Positions 17,495 to 29,370 of a stretch of DNA of 64,000 nt are shown one piece after another. The translations under genes and the position numbers were made by a program. The notes below the pieces were generated by a model. That model did not search any database. It saw only the letters and a program-made list of their open reading frames with translations, and was not told the DNA's origin. Numbering within the stretch: position 1 is the first letter of the stretch; each line of letters opens with the position of its first letter. Origin of the DNA: Bacillota bacterium (GTDB lineage: Bacteria; Bacillota; Clostridia; Christensenellales; SZUA-584); contig JAEWBO010000023.1 of the NCBI GenBank assembly GCA_023391105.1, positions 19,640 through 83,639 on the forward strand, given 5' to 3'.

Positions 17495-17571
17495 CTGGGT
17501 GTGGCGCAGCTTGGTAGCGCGCTTGAATGGGGTTCAAGAGGCCGGAAGTTCGAATCTTCTCACCCAGACCA
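17495..17571 (+). tRNA. tRNA-Pro (anticodon GGG), CCA encoded
   Basis: Hand-folded cloverleaf. The acceptor is CTGGGTG/CACCCAG with C1-G72 and A73. The D stem is GCGC/GCGC and the anticodon stem is CTTGA/TCAAG. The anticodon loop is AUGGGGU, the T arm is GGAAG-TTCGAAT-CTTCT, and a 3' CCA is encoded. Confidence 0.9.
17526..17571 (+). repeat. attL (3' part of the intact tRNA-Pro)
   Basis: AATGGGGTTCAAGAGGCCGGAAGTTCGAATCTTCTCACCCAGACCA matches 29325-29370 at 44 of 46 positions. Confidence 0.85.
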
Positions 17572-17639
17572 AGTAAAGTCCCATAATCAAAGGGTTGTGG
17601 GGCTTTTTCTTTATTGCCCCAAGCGTTCACAAAGCTTTT

Positions 17640-17670
17640 TTCTAACACCTTTTCTAACAGGGTTCTATCT
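17640..17670 (+). repeat. TTCTAACA iterons (candidate integrase arm-type sites, left arm)
   Basis: TTCTAACAccttTTCTAACAgggTTCTAtCt with 11-12-nt periodicity. A near-identical 19-nt string occurs at 29157-29174. Confidence 0.5.
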
Positions 17671-17674
17671 CTTC

Positions 17675-18817
17675 TCAGAGACTCGAGGCGAGCTTATCAG
17701 CCATACTTTGCTTTCGAGTCACGTCCAAGTGTGAATAGATGTTTGCGGTAATTGTTATATCCGAGTGTCCAAGCCACTCCTGAACATCTTTCAGAGTGAA
17801 GCCCATATTAATCAAGATGCTAGCACAGCTATGGCGTAATTCATGAAAACGAATTTTTGGAAGTTTGTTTGCCTTGAGAAGCTTTTGAAACTTCTTGGTC
17901 ACAAAATCCGGAGAAAATGGATGGCCATCATCCCACTTGAGAATATAATCGTTCTTGGTATATTCTTTTCCGAATTCTTCTCTATTTTTCGCTTCATTCT
18001 TCTGTAGTTCAAGCAATAAAGACTGAATATCAGGCACAAGTGGAAAACTACGATAACTTGTTGCGTTTTTCGTTTTGTCCTTTTCTACTGCCTTTGTTAC
18101 TTTTGACACAGTATGCTTAATTGTGAGTGTCTTGGCAGAGAAATCAACACTATCCCATTTCAAACCAAGGGTTTCACTACGACGCAATCCGTAAACTACA
18201 GTCAACTTTATCAGTGGATACAGAGCATCATCTTTCACCGCTTCAAGTAATGCGTTAACTTGTTCAACACTGTAAAAGCTGGATTCGAAGCGGATCATTT
18301 GCGGCAACACGACCTGTTCACACGGATTGTTCGGAATCAGCCCATCCCGAACTGCATCTTTCAATGCTTGAAAAAGGATATTTTTATGCAATCGCAAGCT
18401 TCTCGGAGATAACCCCCCTTTGCCGTCTTTGCGGCCGTTGAGATGTTTTTCATCGATATAAGCCTGTAAAACCTTTCGGTTAATATCACTCAGCTTTATC
18501 CTCTTTGCATCAAAATACGGGAGTATGTGCGTATCCGCCAGACATTGATAACCTTGCATCGTTACAGCATCAACACGAACACTTGATGTTCTCAACCACT
18601 GCCTTACAATATCGCTAAAGATAGCATGGTTATCGGTATACCCTTCGAGTGATTCGTATTCTCTCAGCTTTTCACGCAACACCAGCTCTGCACGCTTTTT
18701 ATTGCCTTTTACAGCAAAGCCTGTCGATATCCATTTTAGCTTCCGCTTCCCTTCGTTGTTGTAAGTATTGATTACTACAAAGTACTTACCGTTTTTAATT
18801 TGTAGGCTGCCTGTCAT
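17675..18817 (-). CDS. int: tyrosine-type site-specific integrase
   Basis: The C-terminus HELRHSCASILI..LKDVQEWLGHSDITITANIYSH carries the R..HxxR..Y catalytic pattern. The start is trimmed to the ATG at 18817 behind an AAAGGAG RBS. Confidence 0.9.
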   Translation of the reverse strand: MTGSLQIKNGKYFVVINTYNNEGKRKLKWISTGFAVKGNKKRAELVLREKLREYESLEGYTDNHAIFSDIVRQWLRTSSVRVDAVTMQGYQCLADTHILPYFDAKRIKLSDINRKVLQAYIDEKHLNGRKDGKGGLSPRSLRLHKNILFQALKDAVRDGLIPNNPCEQVVLPQMIRFESSFYSVEQVNALLEAVKDDALYPLIKLTVVYGLRRSETLGLKWDSVDFSAKTLTIKHTVSKVTKAVEKDKTKNATSYRSFPLVPDIQSLLLELQKNEAKNREEFGKEYTKNDYILKWDDGHPFSPDFVTKKFQKLLKANKLPKIRFHELRHSCASILINMGFTLKDVQEWLGHSDITITANIYSHLDVTRKQSMADKLASSL

Positions 18818-18854
18818 ATCTTCTCCTTTCATCCGACAGTTAGATTGCCTACCA

Positions 18855-19046
18855 TTACACACTTTCAGTATAACGAATAGACTCTATAAAATCAATCAAA
18901 CAGACCTTTGGAATAAGTATCCTTCGGCCTATACGTCTGCTGCTGATAACCTTATTATTGATGAGTTCATAGGCTTTGTTCTTCCCGATTCCAAGGGCTT
19001 CAGCAACTTGATTTACTGTTAATACATCTGGGTATGCGGTAAACAC
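18855..19046 (-). CDS. xis: excisionase-family HTH DNA-binding protein
   Basis: 63 aa. LTVNQVAEALGIGKNKAYELINNKVISSRRIGRRILIPK is the MerR-like Xis HTH pattern. It lies immediately upstream of int. Confidence 0.8.
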   Translation of the reverse strand: MFTAYPDVLTVNQVAEALGIGKNKAYELINNKVISSRRIGRRILIPKVCLIDFIESIRYTESV

Positions 19047-19106
19047 GGCTCCACTCCTTCCGACCAGTATATACCATATCCTCGGAGTTAATATTTCTGC
19101 CCTTTT

Positions 19107-20066
19107 TCATAGCATTTTTATTCCGTTTATATATTCTTTTATCGTGTATTCGAGGCGTGTCCCGTCAGACATAAAGTGCATAACCTTATGTATTCGCCGA
19201 ATGAACGCTGCCCAAACGGCAGGTTGATTGATTTGCTCCCAAACATATTGCTCTAATAAATCCAGATTACTTACAATGTATACCATTTCATAGCACGCCT
19301 GTTTATTTTGATAGCGAGCAGGTAATGCCAAAGGATAGCCATCGAGGTAATTGTTCAGGTCTTGAATACGAAAGTTATTTGCATACTCATCAAGCAGTAA
19401 AACGCTCTCTCCCATATAACCATCAAAGGGGTGCTTATAATTATTTACAGCATAAACGTTTGAATATCCATAACCGTCCATCACAAAACGTGTTTTTCCC
19501 GTCTGCGTAGCTCCGAAAATATAAGTTACGTCCAAATTACGCCATTTGTCGCGGTTTTCCTCTGCTTTTAATGTCTGCCGAACATATTCAATATCACGCA
19601 AACCGCGTAAATAATGTGGAAAGTCAAGCAGTATTTCAGCATTGGTCGCACCGTCTTGGATGCGCTCAATTATAGCTGCTTCAATACTTCTAGAGCCTTG
19701 ACGTTCAACAGGCATTTGTCCCCATTCTTCAAAACTGCCCTCGATCGTGGTTTCTGCCTTGTCTGTGTCTTTCCACTTCCCGCTTTTATTAATATAATTT
19801 TGGTTAGCCTGTGATGTTCCGTTCGCACGTTCAAAATGTGCAGATTCAAAGAGATTTTTCAATGTGCTGAACCTAACAGGAGATAAGCAAACAAGGTATA
19901 TGTGTGTATGCGGCGTTTCTTCCTCACCGATTTCGTCAGCCATGCACCAATAAATTATTGAGTTTAATTTATTTAGTTCCTCTTTTATACGCTCATGGTT
20001 AAAACCTTTATCATCAGGATTGTTTATAGTTATTTGCCATTTCCTGCTTTGTGGGTTCTGTGCCAA
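19107..20066 (-). CDS. rep: HUH-endonuclease Rep with a C-terminal P-loop (SF3-like) NTPase, CRESS/pCRESS-like
   Basis: Motif I is KWQITINNP, motif II is PHTHIYLV and motif III is NYINKSGK (YxxK). Walker A is GATQTGKT, Walker B is VLLLDEY, and IVSN is a motif-C-like element. Confidence 0.8.
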   Translation of the reverse strand: MAQNPQSRKWQITINNPDDKGFNHERIKEELNKLNSIIYWCMADEIGEEETPHTHIYLVCLSPVRFSTLKNLFESAHFERANGTSQANQNYINKSGKWKDTDKAETTIEGSFEEWGQMPVERQGSRSIEAAIIERIQDGATNAEILLDFPHYLRGLRDIEYVRQTLKAEENRDKWRNLDVTYIFGATQTGKTRFVMDGYGYSNVYAVNNYKHPFDGYMGESVLLLDEYANNFRIQDLNNYLDGYPLALPARYQNKQACYEMVYIVSNLDLLEQYVWEQINQPAVWAAFIRRIHKVMHFMSDGTRLEYTIKEYINGIKML

Positions 20067-20167
20067 CGGGTATCACCTCGGTTCAACTGAATTTTGCGAC
20101 GGCGACAAAAGCGACAATGCCATGTAGCAGCCTAAATGCTTGATAAATGCTTGATTTTTGACGTATT

Positions 20168-20204
20168 GCGACAGATTGCGGTAATACTTGACGCAATCTG
20201 TCGC
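20168..20204 (-). promoter_or_regulatory. candidate origin (nick site) stem-loop for Rep
   Basis: Perfect 13-bp stem GCGACAGATTGCG/CGCAATCTGTCGC with an 11-nt loop. On the rep-coding strand the loop reads TCAAGTATTAC and so contains NAGTATTAC. An ATTGCG direct repeat lies within the stem arm. Confidence 0.65.
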
Positions 20205-20267
20205 CGCAAGCGGCGCACGGCAGGGGTGGCGGCTCTTGCCTTCGGCATCGCCTCCGCCCCTGCCGCG

Positions 20268-21563
20268 TTACTCCGCTTTTTGAGGCAGATAGTACGCCTG
20301 TACTTCATCGTCGCCGACCACAAATCTGCCTTTCATATTGGGTGGCAATCTTGTTGCTTTATCGTTTCCCAAAACAAGCTGACTTGCCGCCTCGTCCGCA
20401 AAGTACGCACACGCCCTCCATAAAAGGTTGTTTTTAACTTGGCCGTCCAGAATATCTGTTGAAGGGCGAATTATACCCATAAGGATATGTACCCCCGCAG
20501 CTCTTGAAAGGCGGGCTAATGTCCTCAAACTTTGGTCTATGCTTTCATATGCCTCCTTTTCTTCTTTGGTTTTAGGCTTCACATTTAATACCTCCGCCGC
20601 CTCGTCTATGACCAGCAGCCACGGGATAAATCGCAGCTTCCCTAATGTGTTGAATTCTTCAATATTGCTGACGCCCTCTTTTTTAAAGTGATCTAAGCGA
20701 TTACGTACCTCAATGAGTAAGCTTGTCAGAAACTTTTCAGCTTCCTTTGGCTCTGAAATGATATACGTACCAGACCCATCTTCGAGGTCTATATATTTTT
20801 GGCGCTCACGGTCTATTGCTGCGAAGTCTCCGCCTCCTTTGAAATCCAGTATTTGAACATTAAACCTTTTCTTTATCGCTTGGTATATTATGACGCGTAG
20901 TATGGCTGTCTTGCCTCCTCCTGTCGCTCCTGCCACTATGCCATGTGCAAGCGAGGCGGCGTCCCAAACGCATTTTCCTTGGTACCCCTGACCAATGACG
21001 AATTTTCTCCCGTCCATAATGAAGCTATCGTCCCACTCGATATAATTTGGCAAGTTTTCATCGATCACCAGAATATCTACTTTAGTGATGCTCTCCGGCA
21101 GGTTTATAATTTTAAGAATTCGTTTTTCGAAAAACACTTCCAAATCGGATACAATACGTTCCCATCTGTCATAAGGAATCTGGGACTTAAACCTTATTTT
21201 TTTAAGATAGCGATTAAGTATAGAAGTGTTTAAGTATTTTGGTATTTTCCCGTTATATGCCTTAAATTCTTTTCGCTCAAAAAACTTTTTAAGCTTGTGT
21301 CTTCTAATAACCTCTCCATGTCTTATAATGAGGAACAGCAACGACAACGGAATCCAAAGCCAGCCAAATAGCCACACCAAAACAGGTTCATAAGCCATAT
21401 ACGAAGACGCTATATGCGTCCCTATCCATAACACGCCGCTGCACGAAAGAAATATACCGACATTTTTCAAGGTGCTTGGTCTGCGGAACATTCCCTTGAT
21501 TGAAAAGCACAATGTTTTTACGATATAGATTACAGCAGAAAGAAGTTTCAGTAGAATAAACAT
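20268..21563 (-). CDS. FtsK/SpoIIIE-family DNA translocase (conjugative coupling/TcpA-like)
   Basis: N-terminal TM helices are followed by Walker A GATGGGKT and Walker B LLVIDEAAE. I prefer the ATG at 21563 (GAGGAAG RBS) to the GTG at 21578. Confidence 0.8.
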   Translation of the reverse strand: MFILLKLLSAVIYIVKTLCFSIKGMFRRPSTLKNVGIFLSCSGVLWIGTHIASSYMAYEPVLVWLFGWLWIPLSLLFLIIRHGEVIRRHKLKKFFERKEFKAYNGKIPKYLNTSILNRYLKKIRFKSQIPYDRWERIVSDLEVFFEKRILKIINLPESITKVDILVIDENLPNYIEWDDSFIMDGRKFVIGQGYQGKCVWDAASLAHGIVAGATGGGKTAILRVIIYQAIKKRFNVQILDFKGGGDFAAIDRERQKYIDLEDGSGTYIISEPKEAEKFLTSLLIEVRNRLDHFKKEGVSNIEEFNTLGKLRFIPWLLVIDEAAEVLNVKPKTKEEKEAYESIDQSLRTLARLSRAAGVHILMGIIRPSTDILDGQVKNNLLWRACAYFADEAASQLVLGNDKATRLPPNMKGRFVVGDDEVQAYYLPQKAE

Positions 21564-21639
21564 TTTAATCTTCCTCACTTGTTATATTTCTCGCGGCCTC
21601 CGCTCTGTTTAAGAGCGGAGGATAAGCGAGAAAGAGTTG

Positions 21640-21924
21640 TTACTTCGCTGCTTCTCTCTGAACAAACTGAACCAGATTAACATGATTGAATTTGTCGTAG
21701 AAGAAATTGGCTTCTTGCCCAACAAACGCAGCGAGCTCTTTTAAAGTCAATGGCTTTCCGAACATTTCCGCAATTATCGAGTATTTGATCTTAAAGCTTT
21801 CCGTTCTCAGCCCTGTAGATTTGTCGTTATTGAAGGGCTCGGTGCAATGCAAGACTATATTGTGATAATCGTTTCCTTGATAATTGCCTGACGAATCCGT
21901 GACTCCGATGATTTTCATTGACAT
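21640..21924 (-). CDS. hypothetical 94-aa protein heading the transfer module
   Basis: Strong AAAGGAGAGG RBS. Its position ahead of the FtsK-like gene mirrors the small DUF961-type genes of Tn916-like elements. That comparison is positional only, with no motif match. Confidence 0.4.
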   Translation of the reverse strand: MSMKIIGVTDSSGNYQGNDYHNIVLHCTEPFNNDKSTGLRTESFKIKYSIIAEMFGKPLTLKELAAFVGQEANFFYDKFNHVNLVQFVQREAAK

Positions 21925-22116
21925 AGAATCCTCTCCTTTCTATTTCGTTAGCGGTTCATGACGCCGCTTATTTGCGAATTCGCTGTGAACATAGTATAAA
22001 CGGAGCTTTTCTAACTGTGAACGTTTAGCAATTTCGACGGTGTACGATTCTTGTACACTATTTACGCTTGTTACAAATTATAAATTGTGGTTAAATAGGA
22101 AATGAGGTGAAAAAGT

Positions 22117-22881
22117 ATGACAATAAGCGAGAAAAACAAAGCTGATATGAATCGCCTTAAATCAATAATTAAAGAATTAGGTCAAACACAGATTGAATTT
22201 GCAGAGAACATAGGACGTGACGAGAAATACATCAGTAAAATTATTTCTGGTAAAAGGCCTATGACACAGGGCGTCGCCGAACAAATAAAGAAGAAATATG
22301 GTTATGAAATTGACTATATATTTGGTAAAACCGAAATTAGTAAGGACGCAGCAACGACCATTCTCGAAGATTTTCAAGGCATTTTTTCCGAGATCAGCGT
22401 GACTACACAAGGTTATATGAACGATAAGCGGGAAGAAGTCGAAAATAAATTTTTGACGTTATCAATGGATGAGTATCTATATCAATTCTTAATGGATTTT
22501 GACCACATTGAATTTCGCAAAGAAAACCATGATATAGACAATAAAGCATACGATACTGAACTTGAACTTGCCAAAAAGGACTATCTAAATAGAAAAGGTA
22601 CAGGTGAAGTGCGGCAATACATTTTAATCCCAACCATAGAAATGCCATATATTGTGGCAACAGATAGACAGCATAAAAAAGCATGGGGCGAGGTCCAAAA
22701 AGTTTTGGATTGGGATTATCAAGTCAATTCGTCACCTGTTAATATGTTTAAATTAGCGAGGTCGCTTGATGAGCAGCCCACAGCTACACGATCAAGAGAA
22801 GAAATCGAAGAAAATCAATCACACATAAACAAAAATCAAAAGCCGCCTATTTCTTCACAAGGAGAACAACCCAATGAATAG
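22117..22881 (+). CDS. XRE-family HTH protein with an uncharacterised ~180-aa C-terminal region
   Basis: N-terminal LKSIIKELGQTQIEFAENIGRDEKYISKIISGKRPMT is an HTH_3 pattern. Its stop overlaps the next gene start by 8 nt. Confidence 0.75.
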   Translation: MTISEKNKADMNRLKSIIKELGQTQIEFAENIGRDEKYISKIISGKRPMTQGVAEQIKKKYGYEIDYIFGKTEISKDAATTILEDFQGIFSEISVTTQGYMNDKREEVENKFLTLSMDEYLYQFLMDFDHIEFRKENHDIDNKAYDTELELAKKDYLNRKGTGEVRQYILIPTIEMPYIVATDRQHKKAWGEVQKVLDWDYQVNSSPVNMFKLARSLDEQPTATRSREEIEENQSHINKNQKPPISSQGEQPNE

Positions 22882-25270
22882 AGAGTTAGTTCAAACCTAT
22901 ATCAATTCACAGCCGATAAAAGCAGTAGTTGAATTTGATATTGTAAAGGAAAAGGTTAAATACGCAGATCAAATTAAACAGCACCGTATTATAAATAAGC
23001 TAAACGGTGATGAGGAATGTGTACGTGCATACATACTTACAAAGCTTGCGAATGAATACGGATATGACTTATCACGCATAGAAATTGAAAGAGAATATAC
23101 AGCAGGTCGCCCGCACACTCAAACGAGCCGAATTGATGTTTTAGTGAGAGATAAAACTGGTAATGCCTTTTTATTTATTGAACTTAAATCCCCTGATGAT
23201 TACGCCAAAGAAGATAAAGATAAATTAATTGAAGAACAGCTTTTCAAAGTCGCGGGTAATGAAGAAAAAGAGGGCGGCAAAGTTAAGTATTTGGTTCTAT
23301 ATACGGCAAACGAACAGGGCGACACCCTAACCGATGAATGTATTGTTGTTGATAACGAAAAACACAAAAATTTTAATACTTGGGTTGAAAATGACCGTGA
23401 AAGCGTTAACACAATCCCCGCACGTTATGGCAAAGCTCAACGCACTCCGTATATTAAGGCTTCACAAAAGGATTTAAAAAAGAATTTTACTCATGATACA
23501 TTAGATCGCTTGCGTATTGATTTACATAATGTCCTTTGGGGTGGCGGCGGGACTGATGACAACGAGGTTTTTTCTTCTTTAACAAATTTAATACTTTCAA
23601 AGATTCAAGATGAAAGCGAAAAGCAAGATGGAGAAAAATACGATTTTCAATCCTTTGCGTTTGAAAAGGACGGCGATGAACAGTTTGAAACAAATGAACA
23701 GCTATTCGACAGAATAAATGCGCTTTATCGCCGTGCCTTAAAACAAAAGTTAAATATTATTGATGATAACGAACTAAAGAAATCCTATGTAATCGACACT
23801 AAAAAATTCTCGCTTGCAAAATTAAAATATACCGTCCAAAGTTTAGAGAGCATTTCATTTGTTGATGGTAAAAATAGTTTTAGCGGTAAAGATATTTTGG
23901 GCGATTTCTTCGAAGGGATTATTAGGGGCGGATTCAAACAGAGCAAAGGGCAATTTTTTACGCATATAAACATTGTCCGCTTTATGTTGTGGGCAATACA
24001 AGCCGACAAATTAGCAATAGACAGGATTAACAAAGATGTCGTTATCCCTTATATGATAGACCCCTCGACAGGAAGCGGAACATTTTTAATCGAGTATATG
24101 AAATTCATAACAAAAAATATCAAGTATCGTTTTAGGGATAAGCTCAACACTTCAAGAGATGTTGAGGACAAAATGTCTGAATGGTTTATGCCCGACCACC
24201 GTGAGAATCGTTGGGCGGGGAAATATATTTACGGCTCTGAAATCAACTTCAATTTAGGCACTGCAACAAAAGTAAATATGATTTTGCACGGCGACGGTTC
24301 AACAAATATTTTTGTTAAGGACGGCTTGTTACCTTTTAGCCATTATGTGAAAGCTGCTGAACCTAATGCGTTAAAGGCTTTTGAAAAGGACAGCCTTTAT
24401 CTAGATAAGAATGTAAATGGAGCTTTTGACTTAATACTAACCAATCCGCCATTCAGTGTAGAACTTGATAATGATACCAAAAAAAGCGTAACAAAAGATT
24501 TTATGTTCGGTGATAAAAAGAATTCTGAAAATCTATTTATTGAGCGTTGGTATCAACTTTTACGTGAAAATGGGCGGTTAGCTGCTGTCTTACCCGAAAG
24601 TGTTTTTGACACAACCGAAAACAAATATATTCGCCTTTTCTTATACAAGTATTTTAAAATCAAAGCGGTTGTATCTCTGCCACAGATTGCTTTTCAACCT
24701 TTCACGCCTACAAAGACGAGCATATTATTTGCCCAAAAGAAGACAAAAACTGAAATTGATAAATGGAATAAAGCGTGGGCGGAAGCAAGCAATGAATATT
24801 CAAAGCTGAAAACGCGAATTGAAAATTTAATTGCTGTATATGCAGAAAATAAGACCAGAAATAAATATCCCTCTATCAAGGACCTGAGTGAAACCGCAGA
24901 ATTAGAGTTGTTACATAAAATACTGAAAAATCATATTACAGAGCAAGATAACGCCTTAACTCCTGCACAGATTATTGAAAAGTATTTTGATGAACTACAA
25001 TATTTATGTAAACTCGATAAAGATACAAAAGATATTTTTGGGTTCGTGAATATTTGGTGGGTTTTTGGCGAGGTTGCAAAAACGCTTAATTATGATGTGT
25101 TTATGGCCGAAGCAGATAATATAGGCTATAAACGCACAACTCGCGGTGAACGACCAATGCCCAATGATTTATTTAGAACGATACAAGGCGAAATAGCCGT
25201 TGATGACGGTATTAAAGAAACTGTTTTAGATTATATGCGTGAAATTTCGTGGGATAAGGAGGAAATGTAG
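22874..25270 (+). CDS. fused PD-(D/E)xK (HsdR_N-type) nuclease-like domain plus gamma-class N6-adenine DNA methyltransferase
   Basis: The N-terminal ECVRAYILTKL..RIDVLVRDKTGNAFLFIELK gives D88/E103/K105. The SAM motif is DPSTGSGTFL and the catalytic motif is LTNPPFSV. Length is 798 aa. Confidence 0.75.
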   Translation: MNRELVQTYINSQPIKAVVEFDIVKEKVKYADQIKQHRIINKLNGDEECVRAYILTKLANEYGYDLSRIEIEREYTAGRPHTQTSRIDVLVRDKTGNAFLFIELKSPDDYAKEDKDKLIEEQLFKVAGNEEKEGGKVKYLVLYTANEQGDTLTDECIVVDNEKHKNFNTWVENDRESVNTIPARYGKAQRTPYIKASQKDLKKNFTHDTLDRLRIDLHNVLWGGGGTDDNEVFSSLTNLILSKIQDESEKQDGEKYDFQSFAFEKDGDEQFETNEQLFDRINALYRRALKQKLNIIDDNELKKSYVIDTKKFSLAKLKYTVQSLESISFVDGKNSFSGKDILGDFFEGIIRGGFKQSKGQFFTHINIVRFMLWAIQADKLAIDRINKDVVIPYMIDPSTGSGTFLIEYMKFITKNIKYRFRDKLNTSRDVEDKMSEWFMPDHRENRWAGKYIYGSEINFNLGTATKVNMILHGDGSTNIFVKDGLLPFSHYVKAAEPNALKAFEKDSLYLDKNVNGAFDLILTNPPFSVELDNDTKKSVTKDFMFGDKKNSENLFIERWYQLLRENGRLAAVLPESVFDTTENKYIRLFLYKYFKIKAVVSLPQIAFQPFTPTKTSILFAQKKTKTEIDKWNKAWAEASNEYSKLKTRIENLIAVYAENKTRNKYPSIKDLSETAELELLHKILKNHITEQDNALTPAQIIEKYFDELQYLCKLDKDTKDIFGFVNIWWVFGEVAKTLNYDVFMAEADNIGYKRTTRGERPMPNDLFRTIQGEIAVDDGIKETVLDYMREISWDKEEM

Positions 25271-26679
25271 TGCCTCTTAAAGCTTTCAATTCAAACATAA
25301 TTTATTTCTCTAAAGAAAGATTGCTTAGATGTAATTACAAAACTCTCTCTTTATCCAAAGAATTAGAGACTATAATCAACCACAAATCGAAACACGAAAG
25401 AATAAAAGACTACTTTGATATTTTAAGCGGATTTGCATTTAAAAGCGAGGATTATGTCTTAGAGGGGGTATCCTTAGTCAGAATTGGAGATTTAAATGAA
25501 GAATTTAATATAGAGGATATGGCTAAATTGCCCGAAGAATTCTTAGATCAATATTCCCAGTATGTGTTAGAACAAGACGATATTTTAGTTTCCTTAACAG
25601 GTGATGGCGTCATAAAAACAGCTTTGGTGAATCAAAACGGATTGTTGCTAAATCAACGTGTTGGAGCATTGAGAGCTAAAAGAGAAGTAAATATTAGATT
25701 TATTCACTATCTGTTGTCAACTTCAATAGTAAAAAAGCAGTTTTTATGGTTATCAAATGGGAAAGCCCAATTAAATATCAGCCCGTTAGACTTTCTAAGT
25801 ATAAAAATACCAATTATTGACGTAAATAAACAGGAAAGAGCTCTTATTGAAACCAGTCCTATCGAACAAAAAATCAAAAGCTTAAAATCTAAGATTTTAC
25901 CTTCTCAAAAGGTTATTGATGAAGTATTCGCACGTGAATTTGGATTTGATTATGCCGAATTTGAACGGCTACACGGAATAAAATCATATATGATCGGCAT
26001 TGATTCTTTTTCAAACAACCCCGATTTACGGTTTAGTGCTAAATTTCACCGTGAAGCAGGGGAATATGTAATGCATGAATTATGCTGTATAACTAATAAG
26101 AAAATCAAGAATTATTTAGTCGAGCCAATATGTCTGGGTGCAAGCATATCACCAAAGGATTATGATGATAACGGCGAATATTATTATTTGTCAATGGCAA
26201 CGATTAAGAATTGGGGATTTGATAAAGAAAATGCAACCCTAACATCAAATGAATATTCTAACGAGAAAACTAATAAATACGTTAAGAACGGTGATATAAT
26301 ACTTGCTCGTTCAGGTGAGGGAACCATTGGGAAAGTCGCTTTGATTCAAGATGAGGACATTAAAGCCATTTTTGCGGACTTTACAATGCGAATACGCCTA
26401 AATAATTACAACCATAGATTTGCTTATTACTATATGAGGACTACGTATTTTCAATATCTTGTTGAAATTTTCAAAAAGGGGTTAGGAAATAACACAAATA
26501 TATTTCCGATAGTAATTCAAGAGTTTCCTATCCCCGATATATCATCCAAAGAACAGGATCGCATTGTGAAAGAAATTCAAGAAGAAATCAATAAGCAGAA
26601 CGCTATAAAATCAGAAATTTCTTCGTTGCGGGAACAAATTAACGAGATAATCGAAAGCGTATTAATGTCAAAAAAATAG
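25270..26679 (+). CDS. hsdS: restriction-modification specificity subunit (HsdS-like, two TRDs)
   Basis: GTG start overlapping the upstream stop (taGTG), behind an AAGGAGG RBS. The protein shows a duplicated architecture, with conserved helical spacers (IKSLKSKILPSQKVIDEVFAREFG and the C-terminal EEINKQNAIKSEISSLREQINEII). Confidence 0.8.
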   Translation: MPLKAFNSNIIYFSKERLLRCNYKTLSLSKELETIINHKSKHERIKDYFDILSGFAFKSEDYVLEGVSLVRIGDLNEEFNIEDMAKLPEEFLDQYSQYVLEQDDILVSLTGDGVIKTALVNQNGLLLNQRVGALRAKREVNIRFIHYLLSTSIVKKQFLWLSNGKAQLNISPLDFLSIKIPIIDVNKQERALIETSPIEQKIKSLKSKILPSQKVIDEVFAREFGFDYAEFERLHGIKSYMIGIDSFSNNPDLRFSAKFHREAGEYVMHELCCITNKKIKNYLVEPICLGASISPKDYDDNGEYYYLSMATIKNWGFDKENATLTSNEYSNEKTNKYVKNGDIILARSGEGTIGKVALIQDEDIKAIFADFTMRIRLNNYNHRFAYYYMRTTYFQYLVEIFKKGLGNNTNIFPIVIQEFPIPDISSKEQDRIVKEIQEEINKQNAIKSEISSLREQINEIIESVLMSKK

Positions 26680-26910
26680 GCATTAAAATGTATTTTCTTA
26701 TCGGTATACAACAACGGCGAGTTATTTCTATCCGACTTTTACTTATGATTGGTAATGCTATAATGCCGACTACTATACTGGGCGAATTACACCACCATTA
26801 ACTATCTAACAGGGAAAGAACGATAGTGTTCACACACGCATTCAATTACGCCGTAACGTAATCTTATGTATGCTCGAACATGCAAATATGAACAATGAAC
26901 TAATTTAAAG

Positions 26911-26948
26911 AATAATAGGGAGAACATATAATTGATCTCCCTATTATT
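26911..26948. terminator. hairpin terminator downstream of the 217-aa gene
   Basis: AATAATAGGGAGA-12 nt-TCTCCCTATTATT, flanked by A/T runs, 9 nt past the minus-strand stop at 26957. Confidence 0.7.
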
Positions 26949-26956
26949 TAGTATAA

Positions 26957-27610
26957 TCAATATGTGTATCTTACATTGAATAATGGATCGTTTTGATATC
27001 TGAAATACACTATTCTTCTATTAAGGTTCGTCAACTCAACAATTTGCTCTTCAATCTTTGACCCGTCCGGTTGAAGTCCAGAAGTCAACTCTGCATTTAA
27101 TTGTGATCCGATTGGCATAATTACTGACAATTGAACTGCGCCTCCAGCTTGCACTTCTAGACCATCAAACGGTAAAACCACTTTGAATTCAAAATCGTTT
27201 GATGCTGGGATAGGGAATATCTTGTAATCATACGACAATCTAAATAGGTTATTCGTACCTGTTATAGGTTCTAAACTTTGCTTTTTCATCATTGAAAGCA
27301 TTAGAAACTTTGATGCATCTTCTAAAGTACCGTCAAAGTTTCCTGATAACGCTTGTTCTTTGATATCTTCTGTGCCTTCCAACAATTTTGTTTCTGACAT
27401 AGGGTACATTAGAAAGTTTGTTGCTTTAAATATGATCTCCGCTGCTGGGTTAGGTGTAACACCAGCAGGAACATACCAATACATTTCTTGTGGTATTGCT
27501 TCGCTGGTTTGTAGTAGTGTTTCTACATGAACTACATCGAATTGTCCTCCGTTGAATCTTGAAGTGTTATGAATTACAGCAGTTAAATCTTGCAAAACAA
27601 TATTTGGCAT
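26957..27610 (-). CDS. hypothetical soluble 217-aa protein (third gene of the TIR cluster)
   Basis: ATG at 27610 with a GAAGGT RBS. There is no TM segment or signal peptide. The sequence looks beta-rich, and I recognise no motif. Confidence 0.6.
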   Translation of the reverse strand: MPNIVLQDLTAVIHNTSRFNGGQFDVVHVETLLQTSEAIPQEMYWYVPAGVTPNPAAEIIFKATNFLMYPMSETKLLEGTEDIKEQALSGNFDGTLEDASKFLMLSMMKKQSLEPITGTNNLFRLSYDYKIFPIPASNDFEFKVVLPFDGLEVQAGGAVQLSVIMPIGSQLNAELTSGLQPDGSKIEEQIVELTNLNRRIVYFRYQNDPLFNVRYTY

Positions 27611-27718
27611 ATAATTACCTTCTTTTTTTAATATCATTATATATCTTACCTTACACCGAGTACCAAAAAGTGGACATTAACAGCGTTATATGTAAGAGTA
27701 TATAATTTTGATATAGTA

Positions 27719-28399
27719 TTAAACTTCTTTCATTATTTCATAATTATCAATACTATCCTGACGTTCATATGCTTTATCAATATAATAGTTAATATTGATA
27801 ATAAAGTTGTCCCATCTAACAGCTTTGATGTAACTGGGTTCTCCAGTCCAGATAGTATCATTATTAATACAGGTTCTTTTACTGCCATCTTTCTCATTGA
27901 ATTTATTCTTCTTAATAATAGTAAAAAGTTTGTTGGTGTAATGCATGGTGCAAGGATTAGAACAACAACTTTTACTTTCTAGATAATATGAGTAGGAATT
28001 ATTACTATCGGGTAACACAACGGCTATCATAGCATTAGTTTTACTTGTAATTGGATTTCCATTTTTATCTTTGCGGCTAGTTGCTTTAACTGAATATGAG
28101 ACTTCCCAAGGTATCCATTGATTTCTTTCTGTTTTATTTGTTTCTTTCATATTGGGCGAAATAAAGACTATTGTTAAGGTACTGTCATAGATTCTATCCC
28201 TAAGTTTTTGCCAGATTGTTTCGTCACTTAATTTGGATAAATCTTCGCCATCAGATTCTCCCTTGAAAATATGATTTGTTGAATCAAGTTTTGATTCAAA
28301 TTCATCAACATAATCGCGGACAGTACAATTTTTCCAATAGTGAATATTGTATACATTATCGTCAGCATACTTATAAGACGTAAATATTTTATGCCCCAT
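27719..28399 (-). CDS. TIR-like (DUF1863/ThsB-type) protein
   Basis: KIFTSYKYADD at the N-terminus, STLTIVFISPN, then WIPWEVSYS with Glu99 at the position of the TIR catalytic Glu. The size and layout resemble Thoeris ThsB proteins. An AGGAGG RBS lies inside the upstream gene. Confidence 0.7.
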   Translation of the reverse strand: MGHKIFTSYKYADDNVYNIHYWKNCTVRDYVDEFESKLDSTNHIFKGESDGEDLSKLSDETIWQKLRDRIYDSTLTIVFISPNMKETNKTERNQWIPWEVSYSVKATSRKDKNGNPITSKTNAMIAVVLPDSNNSYSYYLESKSCCSNPCTMHYTNKLFTIIKKNKFNEKDGSKRTCINNDTIWTGEPSYIKAVRWDNFIININYYIDKAYERQDSIDNYEIMKEV

Positions 28400-28400
28400 T

Positions 28401-28832
28401 TTATTTACCTCCTATTAAAATTGAAAGGATAATAACAATTACTATTAATAATGCAGTCGGAAAGTAAAACCAGAGTTCAGTTGGAGAAAAGAGACTTTGT
28501 AAATAACAGGTTTTTTGTGAATAATTTGATTCAGGTTTTGTAAGATCAAAATTAATGTCTTTTACATTTTCTAACGCACTTCTTTTATATAGTATCCGGT
28601 ATTTTCTTTCAATTTGAAGATAATAAGAATCTAAGCCCCAAAACATAATAGTTGGTATATAAGCAAGAAGGAAGAAAAGCAGATTAGAATTTTTTTCTGA
28701 TAAAATAAGAATTCCAGATATTAAAGTTATTGTCCAACCTTTTAGGGCAAACGAATTATGTGTCATACGATTAATAATATTTTGAATCATTTCTAGATGT
28801 CTTATTTTAGGTTCTAAATTTTCGGAATCCAT
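28401..28832 (-). CDS. small membrane protein (3 predicted TM helices), first gene of the TIR cluster
   Basis: ATG at 28832 behind a GGAGGAA RBS. The hydrophobic helices are TITLISGILIL, LLFFLLAYIPTIMFWGL and LWFYFPTALLIVIVIILSILIGG. The stop lies 1 nt from the TIR gene ATG. Confidence 0.7.
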   Translation of the reverse strand: MDSENLEPKIRHLEMIQNIINRMTHNSFALKGWTITLISGILILSEKNSNLLFFLLAYIPTIMFWGLDSYYLQIERKYRILYKRSALENVKDINFDLTKPESNYSQKTCYLQSLFSPTELWFYFPTALLIVIVIILSILIGGK

Positions 28833-28877
28833 GTTTCCTCCTTGAAGAAGTTTGAATGAAAGTAATATGTTTAGTTT

Positions 28878-28907
28878 ATTATACCACATACTTCCTAAAC
28901 TTTTCAA
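28878..28907 (-). promoter_or_regulatory. promoter of the TM-TIR operon
   Basis: On the minus strand, TTGAAA-18 nt-TATAAT with an extended TGg element, about 45 nt upstream of the ATG. Confidence 0.55.
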
Positions 28908-28972
28908 CATATTCTAACACCATATCCATTATTATGATATAATGTGAGCGATATTTTGTTGGAGGATAGAAA

Positions 28973-29038
28973 ATGGCGTGCCACGTTTTAAGCGTTGCCC
29001 AAAACGATTCAAAATGTTGTTCGTGTGAGTGCCGTTAA
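28973..29038 (+). CDS. candidate 21-aa Cys-rich small ORF (MACHVLSVAQNDSKCCSCECR)
   Basis: A GGAGG RBS sits 7 nt before the ATG. An extended -10 TGaTATAAT lies at 28935-28943. The ORF is divergent from the TM-TIR operon and below the ORF-track size cut-off. Confidence 0.35.
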   Translation: MACHVLSVAQNDSKCCSCECR

Positions 29039-29156
29039 TCCATAATATATCATATATTGCCTCCATATTTAAGAAAGGCAACATATGCCAATAAATTTCT
29101 ATTGTTAAAAAACCAGCGTTCCATAATGTTTTATTTGATGTGTAATAGTAGGCTCA

Positions 29157-29174
29157 TCTAACACTTTTCTAACA
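29157..29174 (+). repeat. TCTAACAC-TTTTCTAACA (candidate arm-type sites, right arm)
   Basis: Near-identical to 17641-17659 in the same orientation, about 150 nt inside attR. Confidence 0.5.
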
Positions 29175-29324
29175 TTTTCTCGTTTTCCGTCCAAAATTGA
29201 AACTTCTGCTCTATAGGCTTTCTTTAATTAATTTCTCTTTATACCCCGATTTTACTTGTGCATTCAAGGCTTTTTCCACTAATAGATAAAAGCCTTTGGA
29301 TACTATTAAAAGATAGCCCCCGTC

Positions 29325-29370
29325 AATGGGGTTCAAGAGGCCGGAGGTTCGAATCCTCTCACCCAGACCA
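29325..29370 (+). repeat. attR (displaced 3' tRNA-Pro fragment)
   Basis: AATGGGGTTCAAGAGGCCGGAGGTTCGAATCCTCTCACCCAGACCA. The two differences from attL are a compensatory pair in the T stem. Confidence 0.85.

Follow-up and report, generated by a model that had tools for sequence, protein, structure and literature searches.

Here, we present an analysis of a predicted replication origin in a 64,000-nt stretch of contig JAEWBO010000023.1 from a Bacillota bacterium (assembly GCA_023391105.1), referred to below as the window. The origin is a stem-loop inside an 11.8-kb integrated element and lies between the gene for an FtsK-family ATPase and rep, which encodes a circovirus-type Rep protein. A preliminary description of this DNA had proposed an origin like those of the circular Rep-encoding single-stranded (CRESS) DNA viruses, placed between these two genes. 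The gene map agrees with this placement, and our comparison of related loci supports the proposal itself: the stems covary around an invariant loop octamer, and the repeats predicted to bind Rep (iterons) vary along with them. Based on these sequence comparisons, we conclude that the hairpin probably functions as the Rep-nicked plus-strand (double-strand) rolling-circle origin of the excised circle, and we put the probability of this at roughly 0.8.

The suggestion that the replication module of CRESS-DNA viruses derives from bacterial plasmids has so far rested on Rep phylogeny. The cis half of the module turns out to be conserved as well, with the same nonanucleotide, the same position in a hairpin loop, repeats on the 3' side and rep immediately downstream, and this conservation extends over hundreds of Bacillota elements. 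The element in the window is of a known kind that is common in gut Clostridia and is not a new kind of system; what our comparisons add, for an already published element class, is a definition of its origin by hairpin, nick motif, iteron geometry and accessory hairpin. The combination of rep with a hairpin containing AGTATTAC provides a signature by which such elements and their origins can be annotated, and the site is a defined, genetically tractable bacterial one for studying Rep nicking, iteron specificity and the idea that a relaxase of the Viral_Rep type works together with TcpA.

The predicted origin stem-loop, its conservation and the Rep protein

The hairpin spans 20168-20204 and is oriented with rep on the minus strand. 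Its perfect 13-bp stem is formed by the 5' arm GCGACAGATTGCG (20168-20180) and the 3' arm CGCAATCTGTCGC (20192-20204), which enclose the 11-nt loop GTAATACTTGA (20181-20191; all three given for the plus strand). The rep (minus) strand has TCAAGTATTAC as its loop, so that stem and loop are present as first described; this loop contains the nonanucleotide AAGTATTAC (20189 to 20181). This is a nonanucleotide of the NANTATTAC type in a stem-loop on the rep-sense strand, as in CRESS-type origins. The octamer AGTATTAC occurs once in the 64 kb when both strands are counted (0.98 copies expected), and this one copy is the hairpin loop. A search for perfect hairpins (stems of 13 bp or more, loops of 3-15 nt) gave three in the window and none in 30 composition-preserving shuffles. 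Folded as single-stranded DNA, the 201-nt intergenic region reaches -46.6 kcal/mol (z = -4.5 compared with shuffles) and contains two strong hairpins, namely the origin hairpin and a GC-rich imperfect hairpin. The exact 37-nt hairpin has no copy in species-representative genomes, and an Rfam search of 19900-20400 returned only noise. By analogy to the porcine circovirus 2 (PCV2) site AAGTATT*AC, the predicted nick lies between T20183 and A20182 on the minus strand.

Evidence that this hairpin is a nick site comes from its relatives. More than 3,300 relatives of Rep were found at E <= 1e-5 in the protein collection, and 445 related loci are present among species-representative genomes. Our first sample comprised 22 loci from species-representative genomes (Rep 39-66% identical), all from Clostridia and mostly from Lachnospiraceae and Oscillospiraceae. 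In nineteen of them, the rep strand carries AGTATTAC at a distance of 50-280 nt upstream of the gene, always in a loop closed by a perfect stem of 7-13 bp, and the stem sequences are unrelated between loci. Among the remaining three, the hairpin lies 1.2 kb upstream of rep in one and just downstream of rep in another, and the third locus is cut by a contig end. We then pooled this sample with loci from phage databases, IMG/VR, plasmids and close relatives to give 31 loci (Rep 31-87% identical) with 27 distinct hairpins. Each of the four Watson-Crick pair types is represented at stem positions 2-7, and AGTATTAC is preceded by T in 20 hairpins, by A in 6 and by C in 1; the same search would place a random site within a stem of 7 bp or more with a probability of 0.008. 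In relatives whose Rep proteins are 84-87% identical, the stem carries a compensatory double change (GCGACAG/CTGTCGC to GCTACAG/CTGTAGC). An invariant loop within freely covarying stems argues for a nick-site hairpin and not for a terminator.

A second sample, consisting of 80 of the 445 related loci, contained exact hairpins in 67, and these occurred in both of the gene contexts encountered: TcpA is encoded upstream of the origin and rep in 27 of the origin-bearing loci, and Zot or RstB neighbours are present in 20. In several of the other 13 loci, the site reads AGTGTTAC, the loop is longer or the site lies on the other strand. In three loci (L075, L076 and L087), a loop ~120 nt upstream of rep reads GTAACACTAG or GTAATACTAG, which places the nonanucleotide (C)TAGTGTTAC or TAGTATTAC on the strand opposite rep, i.e., as an inverted origin. 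One further locus (L078, JAEZKE010000040.1) has the origin hairpin and a Zot neighbour on a contig binned with a metagenome-assembled genome of a Methanobacteriota archaeon; we suggest that this assignment is probably a binning error.

The gene downstream of the hairpin encodes the cognate type of initiator. rep (19107..20066, minus strand) codes for a 319-aa protein that scores above the curated cut-offs for Viral_Rep (PF02407; 29.4 bits, cut-off 26) and RNA_helicase (PF00910; 22.9 bits, cut-off 21.5) in Pfam, and its best relative of solved structure is the full-length PCV2 Rep (7lar; E 2.8e-13 over residues 5-296). The motifs listed in the preliminary description, i.e., KWQITINNP (residues 9-17), HTHIY (53-57), YINK (91-94) and GATQTGKT (185-192), are all there. 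In the alignment with PCV2 Rep, they correspond to motif I (WQITINNP), the HUH motif (HTH), the YxxK motif (YINK) and Walker A (GATQTGKT), and the stretch that bridges single-stranded DNA as well as Walker B (LLLDE) and motif C (VSN) of the helicase are also aligned. No variation occurs among 20 aligned Rep relatives at H53, Y91, K94, K191, E227 and N267. By its sequence, Rep is thus a full circovirus-type protein with an HUH endonuclease and a superfamily 3 (SF3) helicase, and cleavage with formation of a 5' adduct is predicted.

The comparison of Rep with CRESS and bacterial pCRESS Reps, which had been proposed as a check, came out in favour of this assignment. In BLASTP searches against sequences copied from the published alignment, Rep was 36-39% identical to pCRESS2 (E 1e-57 to 2e-66), 31-34% identical to pCRESS3 and 26% identical to pCRESS1, making it closest to the pCRESS2 references in a grouping by similarity and not by tree. 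Rep has no match to Rep_trans (PF02486) in Pfam and does not belong to the MobT/Rep_trans modules, and neither NCBIfam nor PHROGs yielded a family for it.

Iterons, spacer and accessory hairpin

Based on its repeats, the region from the 3' arm of the hairpin to rep contains four copies of TGTCGC(A), which are the predicted Rep-binding iterons. The proximal copy, TGTCGCA (20167..20173, minus strand), overlaps the 3' arm (as read on the rep strand) at its outer end. The distal cluster, TGTCGC ttt TGTCGC c GTCGCA (20095..20116, minus strand), is located just upstream of the rep ribosome-binding site, and its copies lie at 20111-20116, 20102-20107 and 20095-20100. Measured on the rep strand from the 3' arm, the offsets of TGTCGC are 7 (20168-20173), 64 and 73 and that of GTCGCA is 80, and a spacer of 57 nt separates the proximal from the distal copies. 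TGTCGC is enriched in the 114-nt interval (p = 0.003 compared with shuffles). In 10 other loci, the offsets of the repeats are ~10, ~68, ~77 and ~85, frequently accompanied by an inverted copy at ~55. The iteron word differs by locus (TGTCGC, TGTAAC, TGTCGA or GTCGAT), and in each locus the copy that touches the stem carries that locus's own word. A word that changes at a fixed geometry is the pattern expected of specificity-determining Rep-binding sites.

A different repeat, ATTGCG, had been singled out earlier as iteron-like. The two copies exist (20165-20170 and 20175-20180); however, the second is the tail of TGTCGCAAT, and the repetition is largely a by-product of the overlap between the true iteron TGTCGC(A) and the stem. 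Other loci have no repeated ATTGCG, and close relatives preserve it only in part, whereas TGTCGC(A) recurs at fixed offsets, and we therefore rejected ATTGCG as the iteron. The 57-nt spacer also contains an exact tandem duplication of an 11-mer (20134..20155, minus strand), which reads ATCAAGCATTT twice on the rep strand and AAATGCTTGAT twice on the plus strand and is largely conserved in the three close relatives with 84-87% identical Rep proteins (L028, L030 and L031). It is a candidate for the rep promoter or for a host-factor site.

On the other side of the origin, the GC-rich, partly palindromic patch that had been noted at 20205-20265 proved to be an imperfect 50-nt hairpin (20217..20266), which adjoins the stop codon of the FtsK-like gene. 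GC content over the 90 nt on the upstream side of the origin is 67%, compared with 47% for the window, and these 90 nt fold with a z of -4.3. A comparable hairpin is present at the same position in most loci and in plasmid p4M. In close relatives, the arms differ by compensatory changes (GGCA/TGCC to GGAA/TTCC) and by a matched CATAGGG/CCCTATG insertion, which argues that the hairpin is selected as a structure. In a terminator scan of 19900-20500, it was not followed by a T-run. Its place on the displaced strand, just 5' of the predicted nick, is that of single-strand origins in rolling-circle plasmids and Ff phages. The GC-rich hairpin is a candidate for such a single-strand origin, or alternatively for a transcript-end or insulating structure. 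In loci with an inovirus context (L002, L011 and L013), the accessory hairpins share the loop motif CGCACT(C/T)T on different stems, and L013 has a second copy of the motif further downstream; this hairpin may be a separate conserved structured element, e.g., a packaging signal or a minus-strand origin.

Relatives of the module and the proposed role of the origin

Compared with the origins of eukaryotic viruses, the site in the window matches at the level of every sequence feature of a CRESS-type origin. In porcine circovirus, the loop sequence AxTAxTAC is cut between T and A by Tyr96, four Rep-binding hexamers lie 3' of the stem with rep downstream, and Rep represses its own promoter via the hexamers (PMC2690592). 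The PCV2 site is AAGTATT*AC, the nanovirus site is TAGTATT*AC, and viral origins have stems of 9-11 bp and loops of 10-13 nt (PMC7826260). Accordingly, the cognate site of PCV2 is identical to the window nonamer AAGTATTAC, and the nanovirus site TAGTATTAC is the commonest form among the bacterial relatives; also shared are the short direct repeats that follow the stem immediately on its 3' side, the position of rep further along the nicked strand, and the Rep domains and motifs. The two differ in that the stem is 13 bp in the window and 9-11 bp in the viruses, and in that the viral hexamers are adjacent, whereas one proximal and three distal iterons are 57 nt apart here. Moreover, unlike the circovirus origin, that in the window has a GC-rich hairpin directly 5' and belongs to an 11.8-kb integrated replicon with no capsid gene, from which a single Rep product is expected and no splicing.

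Among bacteria, Kazlauskas et al. 2019 (PMC6668415) defined nine pCRESS Rep groups, most of them on tRNA-integrated elements with tyrosine recombinases, and reported that FtsK-like ATPases and single-stranded DNA-binding (SSB)-like proteins are common to groups 1-3, 5 and 8. The element in the window shares with pCRESS2 (the p4M-like cluster) the nearest Rep proteins, integration into a tRNA gene flanked by direct repeats, a tyrosine recombinase and an FtsK-like ATPase, and it likewise lacks virion genes; its small 94-aa protein may correspond to the SSB-like partner. It differs in its cargo, which consists of restriction-modification and Thoeris-like TIR genes. The terms nonanucleotide and stem-loop do not occur in PMC6668415, nor nonanucleotide in its supplement, and a search for AGTATTAC together with pCRESS or relaxase, which did not cover subscription papers, found no published origin description for such bacterial elements.

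The same module is present on replicons outside chromosomes. The only plasmid match for Rep is that of Bifidobacterium p4M (31% identical; pCRESS3 in the published scheme), in which an FtsK-like gene, a GC-rich hairpin, an origin hairpin (GTGGGCGG-caTAGTGTTAC-CCGCCCAC) and repA follow each other in this order. In addition, six circular 5.7-10-kb inovirus records named bajarodino virus and two IMG/VR contigs encode Rep proteins that are 44-50% identical; four of these eight loci were read (two bajarodino and two IMG/VR), and all four have the same hairpin with TGTCGCA or TGTAACA iterons. The two bajarodino records examined have Zot and RstB-like genes. The presence of the module in p4M and in circular inovirus-like genomes of 5.7-6.8 kb supports that it serves autonomous rolling-circle replicons. 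Tisza et al. 2020 (PMC7000223) had earlier reported chimeras in which a CRESS-like Rep is combined with inovirus genes. These inovirus-like circles (the bajarodino records, and ctbe30 and ctbc27 from PMC7000223) have the same origin hairpin and iteron layout as the window, with Rep proteins 44-50% identical; they differ in possessing Zot, RstB-like and virion genes and in lacking TcpA, an integrase and cargo. The loci with the module in inovirus-like genomes or prophages with Zot and RstB-like genes are L023, L024, L026 and L027 as well as L002-L005, L007 and L011.

The ATPase gene next to the origin is relevant for a possible second function. This gene (20268..21578, minus strand) had been labelled ftsK; the family assignment holds (FtsK_SpoIIIE in Pfam, 1.7e-13), but the product is more exactly TcpA-type, as judged from its N-terminal membrane segments and from its best matches among 72,556 plasmids, which are the tcpA genes of the Clostridium perfringens pCW3 family (34% over residues 125-431, E 2e-38). 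The product is a putative coupling protein, which is the role that TcpA has in conjugation. The element encodes an integrase, a Viral_Rep-domain protein and a TcpA-type ATPase and has no secretion system of its own. It is a pCRESS2-type integrated plasmid or, in other terms, an integrative mobilizable element (IME) with a Viral_Rep-type "relaxase" and a TcpA-type ATPase.

Streptococcal IMEs with Rel_PF02407 and TcpA were described by Coluzzi et al. 2017 (PMC5357655) and, in the same year, by Guedon et al. 2017 (PMC5704250), with the proposal that such Reps are relaxases and perhaps also replication initiators. IME class 7 (PMC5357655) resembles the element in the window in its tyrosine integrase, Viral_Rep-domain protein and TcpA-type ATPase, in having tcpA upstream of the Rep gene, and in the proposed dual role in transfer and maintenance; its hosts are Streptococcus, and one Rep (WP_003102166.1, S. 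iniae) is pCRESS1 by accession. In the passages of PMC5357655 covered here, no origin of transfer (oriT) is described for these class 7 IMEs. The modules of Tn916, ICEBs1 and ICESt3 share the order of FtsK-like coupling protein, nick site and rolling-circle-type initiator, and one protein is likewise thought to serve transfer and replication. They differ in the initiator, which is Rep_trans (PF02486) there and Viral_Rep with an SF3 helicase here, so that Rep in the window brings its own helicase, and in the sequence of the nick site. The preliminary description had considered a bacterial element of this design unusual. This part of it does not hold, because the element matches published pCRESS2 plasmids and Rel_PF02407/TcpA elements: the kind is already known (pCRESS1-3 and IMEs with Rel_PF02407 and TcpA), and with 445 related loci it is not rare.

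From these comparisons, we propose the following model. The integrase and its excisionase would excise the element as a circle. Rep would bind the TGTCGC(A) iterons, namely the one next to the stem and the three located 57 nt beyond it, before rep, and upon extrusion of the stem-loop Tyr91 of Rep would cut AAGTATT|AC on the rep-sense strand (20183/20182), with Rep being held on the 5' end. The SF3 helicase of Rep and the host polymerase would then carry out rolling-circle synthesis until the regenerated hairpin is cut and rejoined and a single-stranded circle is released. Because the iterons bracket the space in which the rep promoter must lie, Rep probably also represses rep, as in porcine circovirus. 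Finally, the Rep-bound strand would probably be passed to the TcpA-like ATPase and be exported by a conjugative element in the same cell via its type IV secretion system, in which case the same site would also be an oriT. We give even odds to the origin doubling as an oriT in this manner. The inclusive version of the model holds that a circovirus-type Rep acts as a conjugative relaxase at a dual double-strand origin and oriT, with Rep on the AAGTATTAC hairpin being delivered by TcpA to a Gram-positive secretion system, and that one module of hairpin, 3' iterons and rep is found in Bacillota on free plasmids, on integrated mobilizable elements and in filamentous phages and was passed essentially unchanged to eukaryotic CRESS-DNA viruses. 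We advance this version tentatively and rate its chances slightly below even. If it is true, bacterial and circovirus Reps would be expected to cleave each other's loops, with the iterons setting specificity.

Several observations count against these proposals. For the origin, ~9-16% of related loci have no recognisable hairpin in the sequence examined; the nonanucleotide is on the strand opposite rep in 3 loci, showing that this orientation is not obligatory; and nicking between T7 and A8 is an extrapolation from circoviruses. In addition, a promoter scan of 19900-20500 gave no sigma-70 consensus for rep or between the iterons, and Rep autoregulation is consequently an argument by analogy. 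For the oriT role, the window contains no conjugative helper element, p4M is typed as non-mobilizable by MOB-suite (which may not recognise its type of Rep), and the role is inferred from the gene neighbourhood, with TcpA adjacent here and encoded upstream of the origin in 27 further loci and a gene order as in Tn916 and ICEBs1, and from published proposals for this element class.

In one alternative, Rep and the hairpin only maintain the excised circle as a replication origin, and the ATPase acts in segregation or in the translocation of double-stranded DNA, like TraB of actinomycetes. Actinomycete integrative elements have a similar int-xis-rep-ftsK content, and in these Rep replicates the element while the FtsK-like protein moves double-stranded DNA. 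Apart from the missing helper secretion system and the typing of p4M, which is a free plasmid with just ftsK, rep and three small genes, this alternative is favoured by the inovirus-like circles, which use the rep-origin module purely for replication. Set against it are the ATPase itself, which is nearest to the TcpA of pCW3, and the order of tcpA, origin and initiator, which is that of Tn916 and ICEBs1, in which the initiator is both relaxase and replication initiator according to PMC5357655 and PMC5704250; moreover, Rep-dependent mobilisation of rolling-circle plasmids through ICEBs1 is among the work cited in PMC5357655. We consider a role restricted to replication unlikely, but the most serious of the alternatives.

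A far less probable alternative makes the element a filamentous-phage satellite or remnant, with single-stranded circles that a helper inovirus would package and export in place of conjugation. The 44-50% identical Reps, the shared origin and the TGTCGCA iterons in circles with Zot and RstB-like genes, the Zot or RstB neighbours at 20 origin-bearing loci of the 80, and the chimeras reported earlier (PMC7000223) would all be in line with it. However, there is no Zot, coat or RstB homologue in 17.5-29.4 kb and no identifiable packaging signal, and the set of TcpA, integrase, Xis and defence cargo is the pattern of an IME. An integrated inovirus prophage, which was considered on the strength of phage-database matches, was ruled out by the lack of Zot, RstB and coat genes in the element. 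That the hairpin is simply a terminator, an operator or a chance palindrome between tcpA and rep, with AGTATTAC being there by coincidence, we regard as having a negligible chance, even though the site is intergenic between co-oriented genes and a single copy of the octamer in 64 kb equals chance expectation. The terminator scan of 19900-20500 found no intrinsic terminator at either hairpin and no T-run after the origin hairpin, and an intrinsic terminator is already contradicted by the comparative data: at least 27 distinct loci combine an invariant loop octamer with free stems, which is the opposite of what a terminator would give. Nor does chance account readily for a stem of at least 7 bp at a site where a random one would have it with a probability of 0.008, or for a neighbouring gene that encodes the cognate type of Rep. 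Altogether, we favour the Rep-nicked rolling-circle origin as the explanation of the hairpin.

The integrated element and its other genes

The bounds of the element (17526-29370) were derived from a 46-nt repeat of tRNA-Pro. A tRNA-Pro gene (GGG, ARAGORN) is located at 17495..17571 on the plus strand, and its 3' part forms attL (17526-17571, plus strand; repeat search and alignment); the displaced 3' part at 29325..29370 (plus strand) is attR and is identical to attL at 44 of 46 bases. Next to attL, the minus strand encodes a tyrosine integrase (17675..18862), with a Phage_integrase match in Pfam (1.9e-27) and SAM-like N-terminal domains, and a small HTH_17 protein (18855..19046; Pfam 5.9e-14), which we take for an excisionase-type recombination directionality factor (Xis). 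Homologues of the HTH_17 protein are encoded between rep and int in two related loci (L010 and L012).

Upstream of tcpA lies a gene for a 94-aa protein of an unnamed family (21640..21924, minus strand). It has no sequence match in Pfam, NCBIfam or the PDB, even when 70 family members are used, and its family comprises ~192 sequence clusters without a Pfam model. The AlphaFold model has a predicted local distance difference test score (pLDDT) of 91 and a strand-strand-strand-helix-strand-strand order, as in the oligonucleotide/oligosaccharide-binding (OB) fold, and Foldseek matches it to the OB folds of SSB, PriB and Stn1, albeit weakly (E >= 0.01). Judging from this model, the protein possibly binds single-stranded DNA, which would fit the SSB-like partner of such elements; a role like that of HelP/DUF961 is suggestive only. 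The gene is kept upstream of tcpA in L030 and L031. Diverging from the transfer and replication genes is a gene for an Xre-type regulator (22117..22881, plus strand), which matches HTH_3 in Pfam (8.7e-06) and transcriptional regulator/repressor families in PHROGs.

The remainder of the element (22874..28910) consists of cargo genes. They encode a 798-aa N6-adenine methyltransferase (type I or IIG-like), a 469-aa type I-like specificity subunit, a 226-aa protein without an assigned family, a ThsB-like TIR protein (PADLOC 6e-79) and a PDC-M50A protein. The cargo resembles a small defence island, in which there is no separate restriction subunit and the ThsB-like TIR protein is without an obvious ThsA. 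Searches of the open reading frames of the element against Pfam, PHROGs and defence profiles found no virion, Zot, coat, RstB or secretion-system genes; a tblastn search with the bajarodino Zot and RstB proteins covered other loci, where it gave matches, and the window was outside that search.

In the three close relatives (L028, L030 and L031), the block of 94-aa gene, tcpA, origin and rep is kept, and a large serine recombinase is present in place of the tyrosine integrase and Xis. The integration genes have thus been swapped as a module in these elements. Their cargo consists of type III restriction-modification genes and an SMC-like ATPase. The other two perfect 13-bp hairpins of the window lie at 26911-26948, which is inside the element at the end of the specificity-subunit gene region, and at 2225-2253, where the hairpin TGCCACCTCCTTT-aaa-AAAGGAGGTGGCA pairs a Shine-Dalgarno-like sequence with its own complement.

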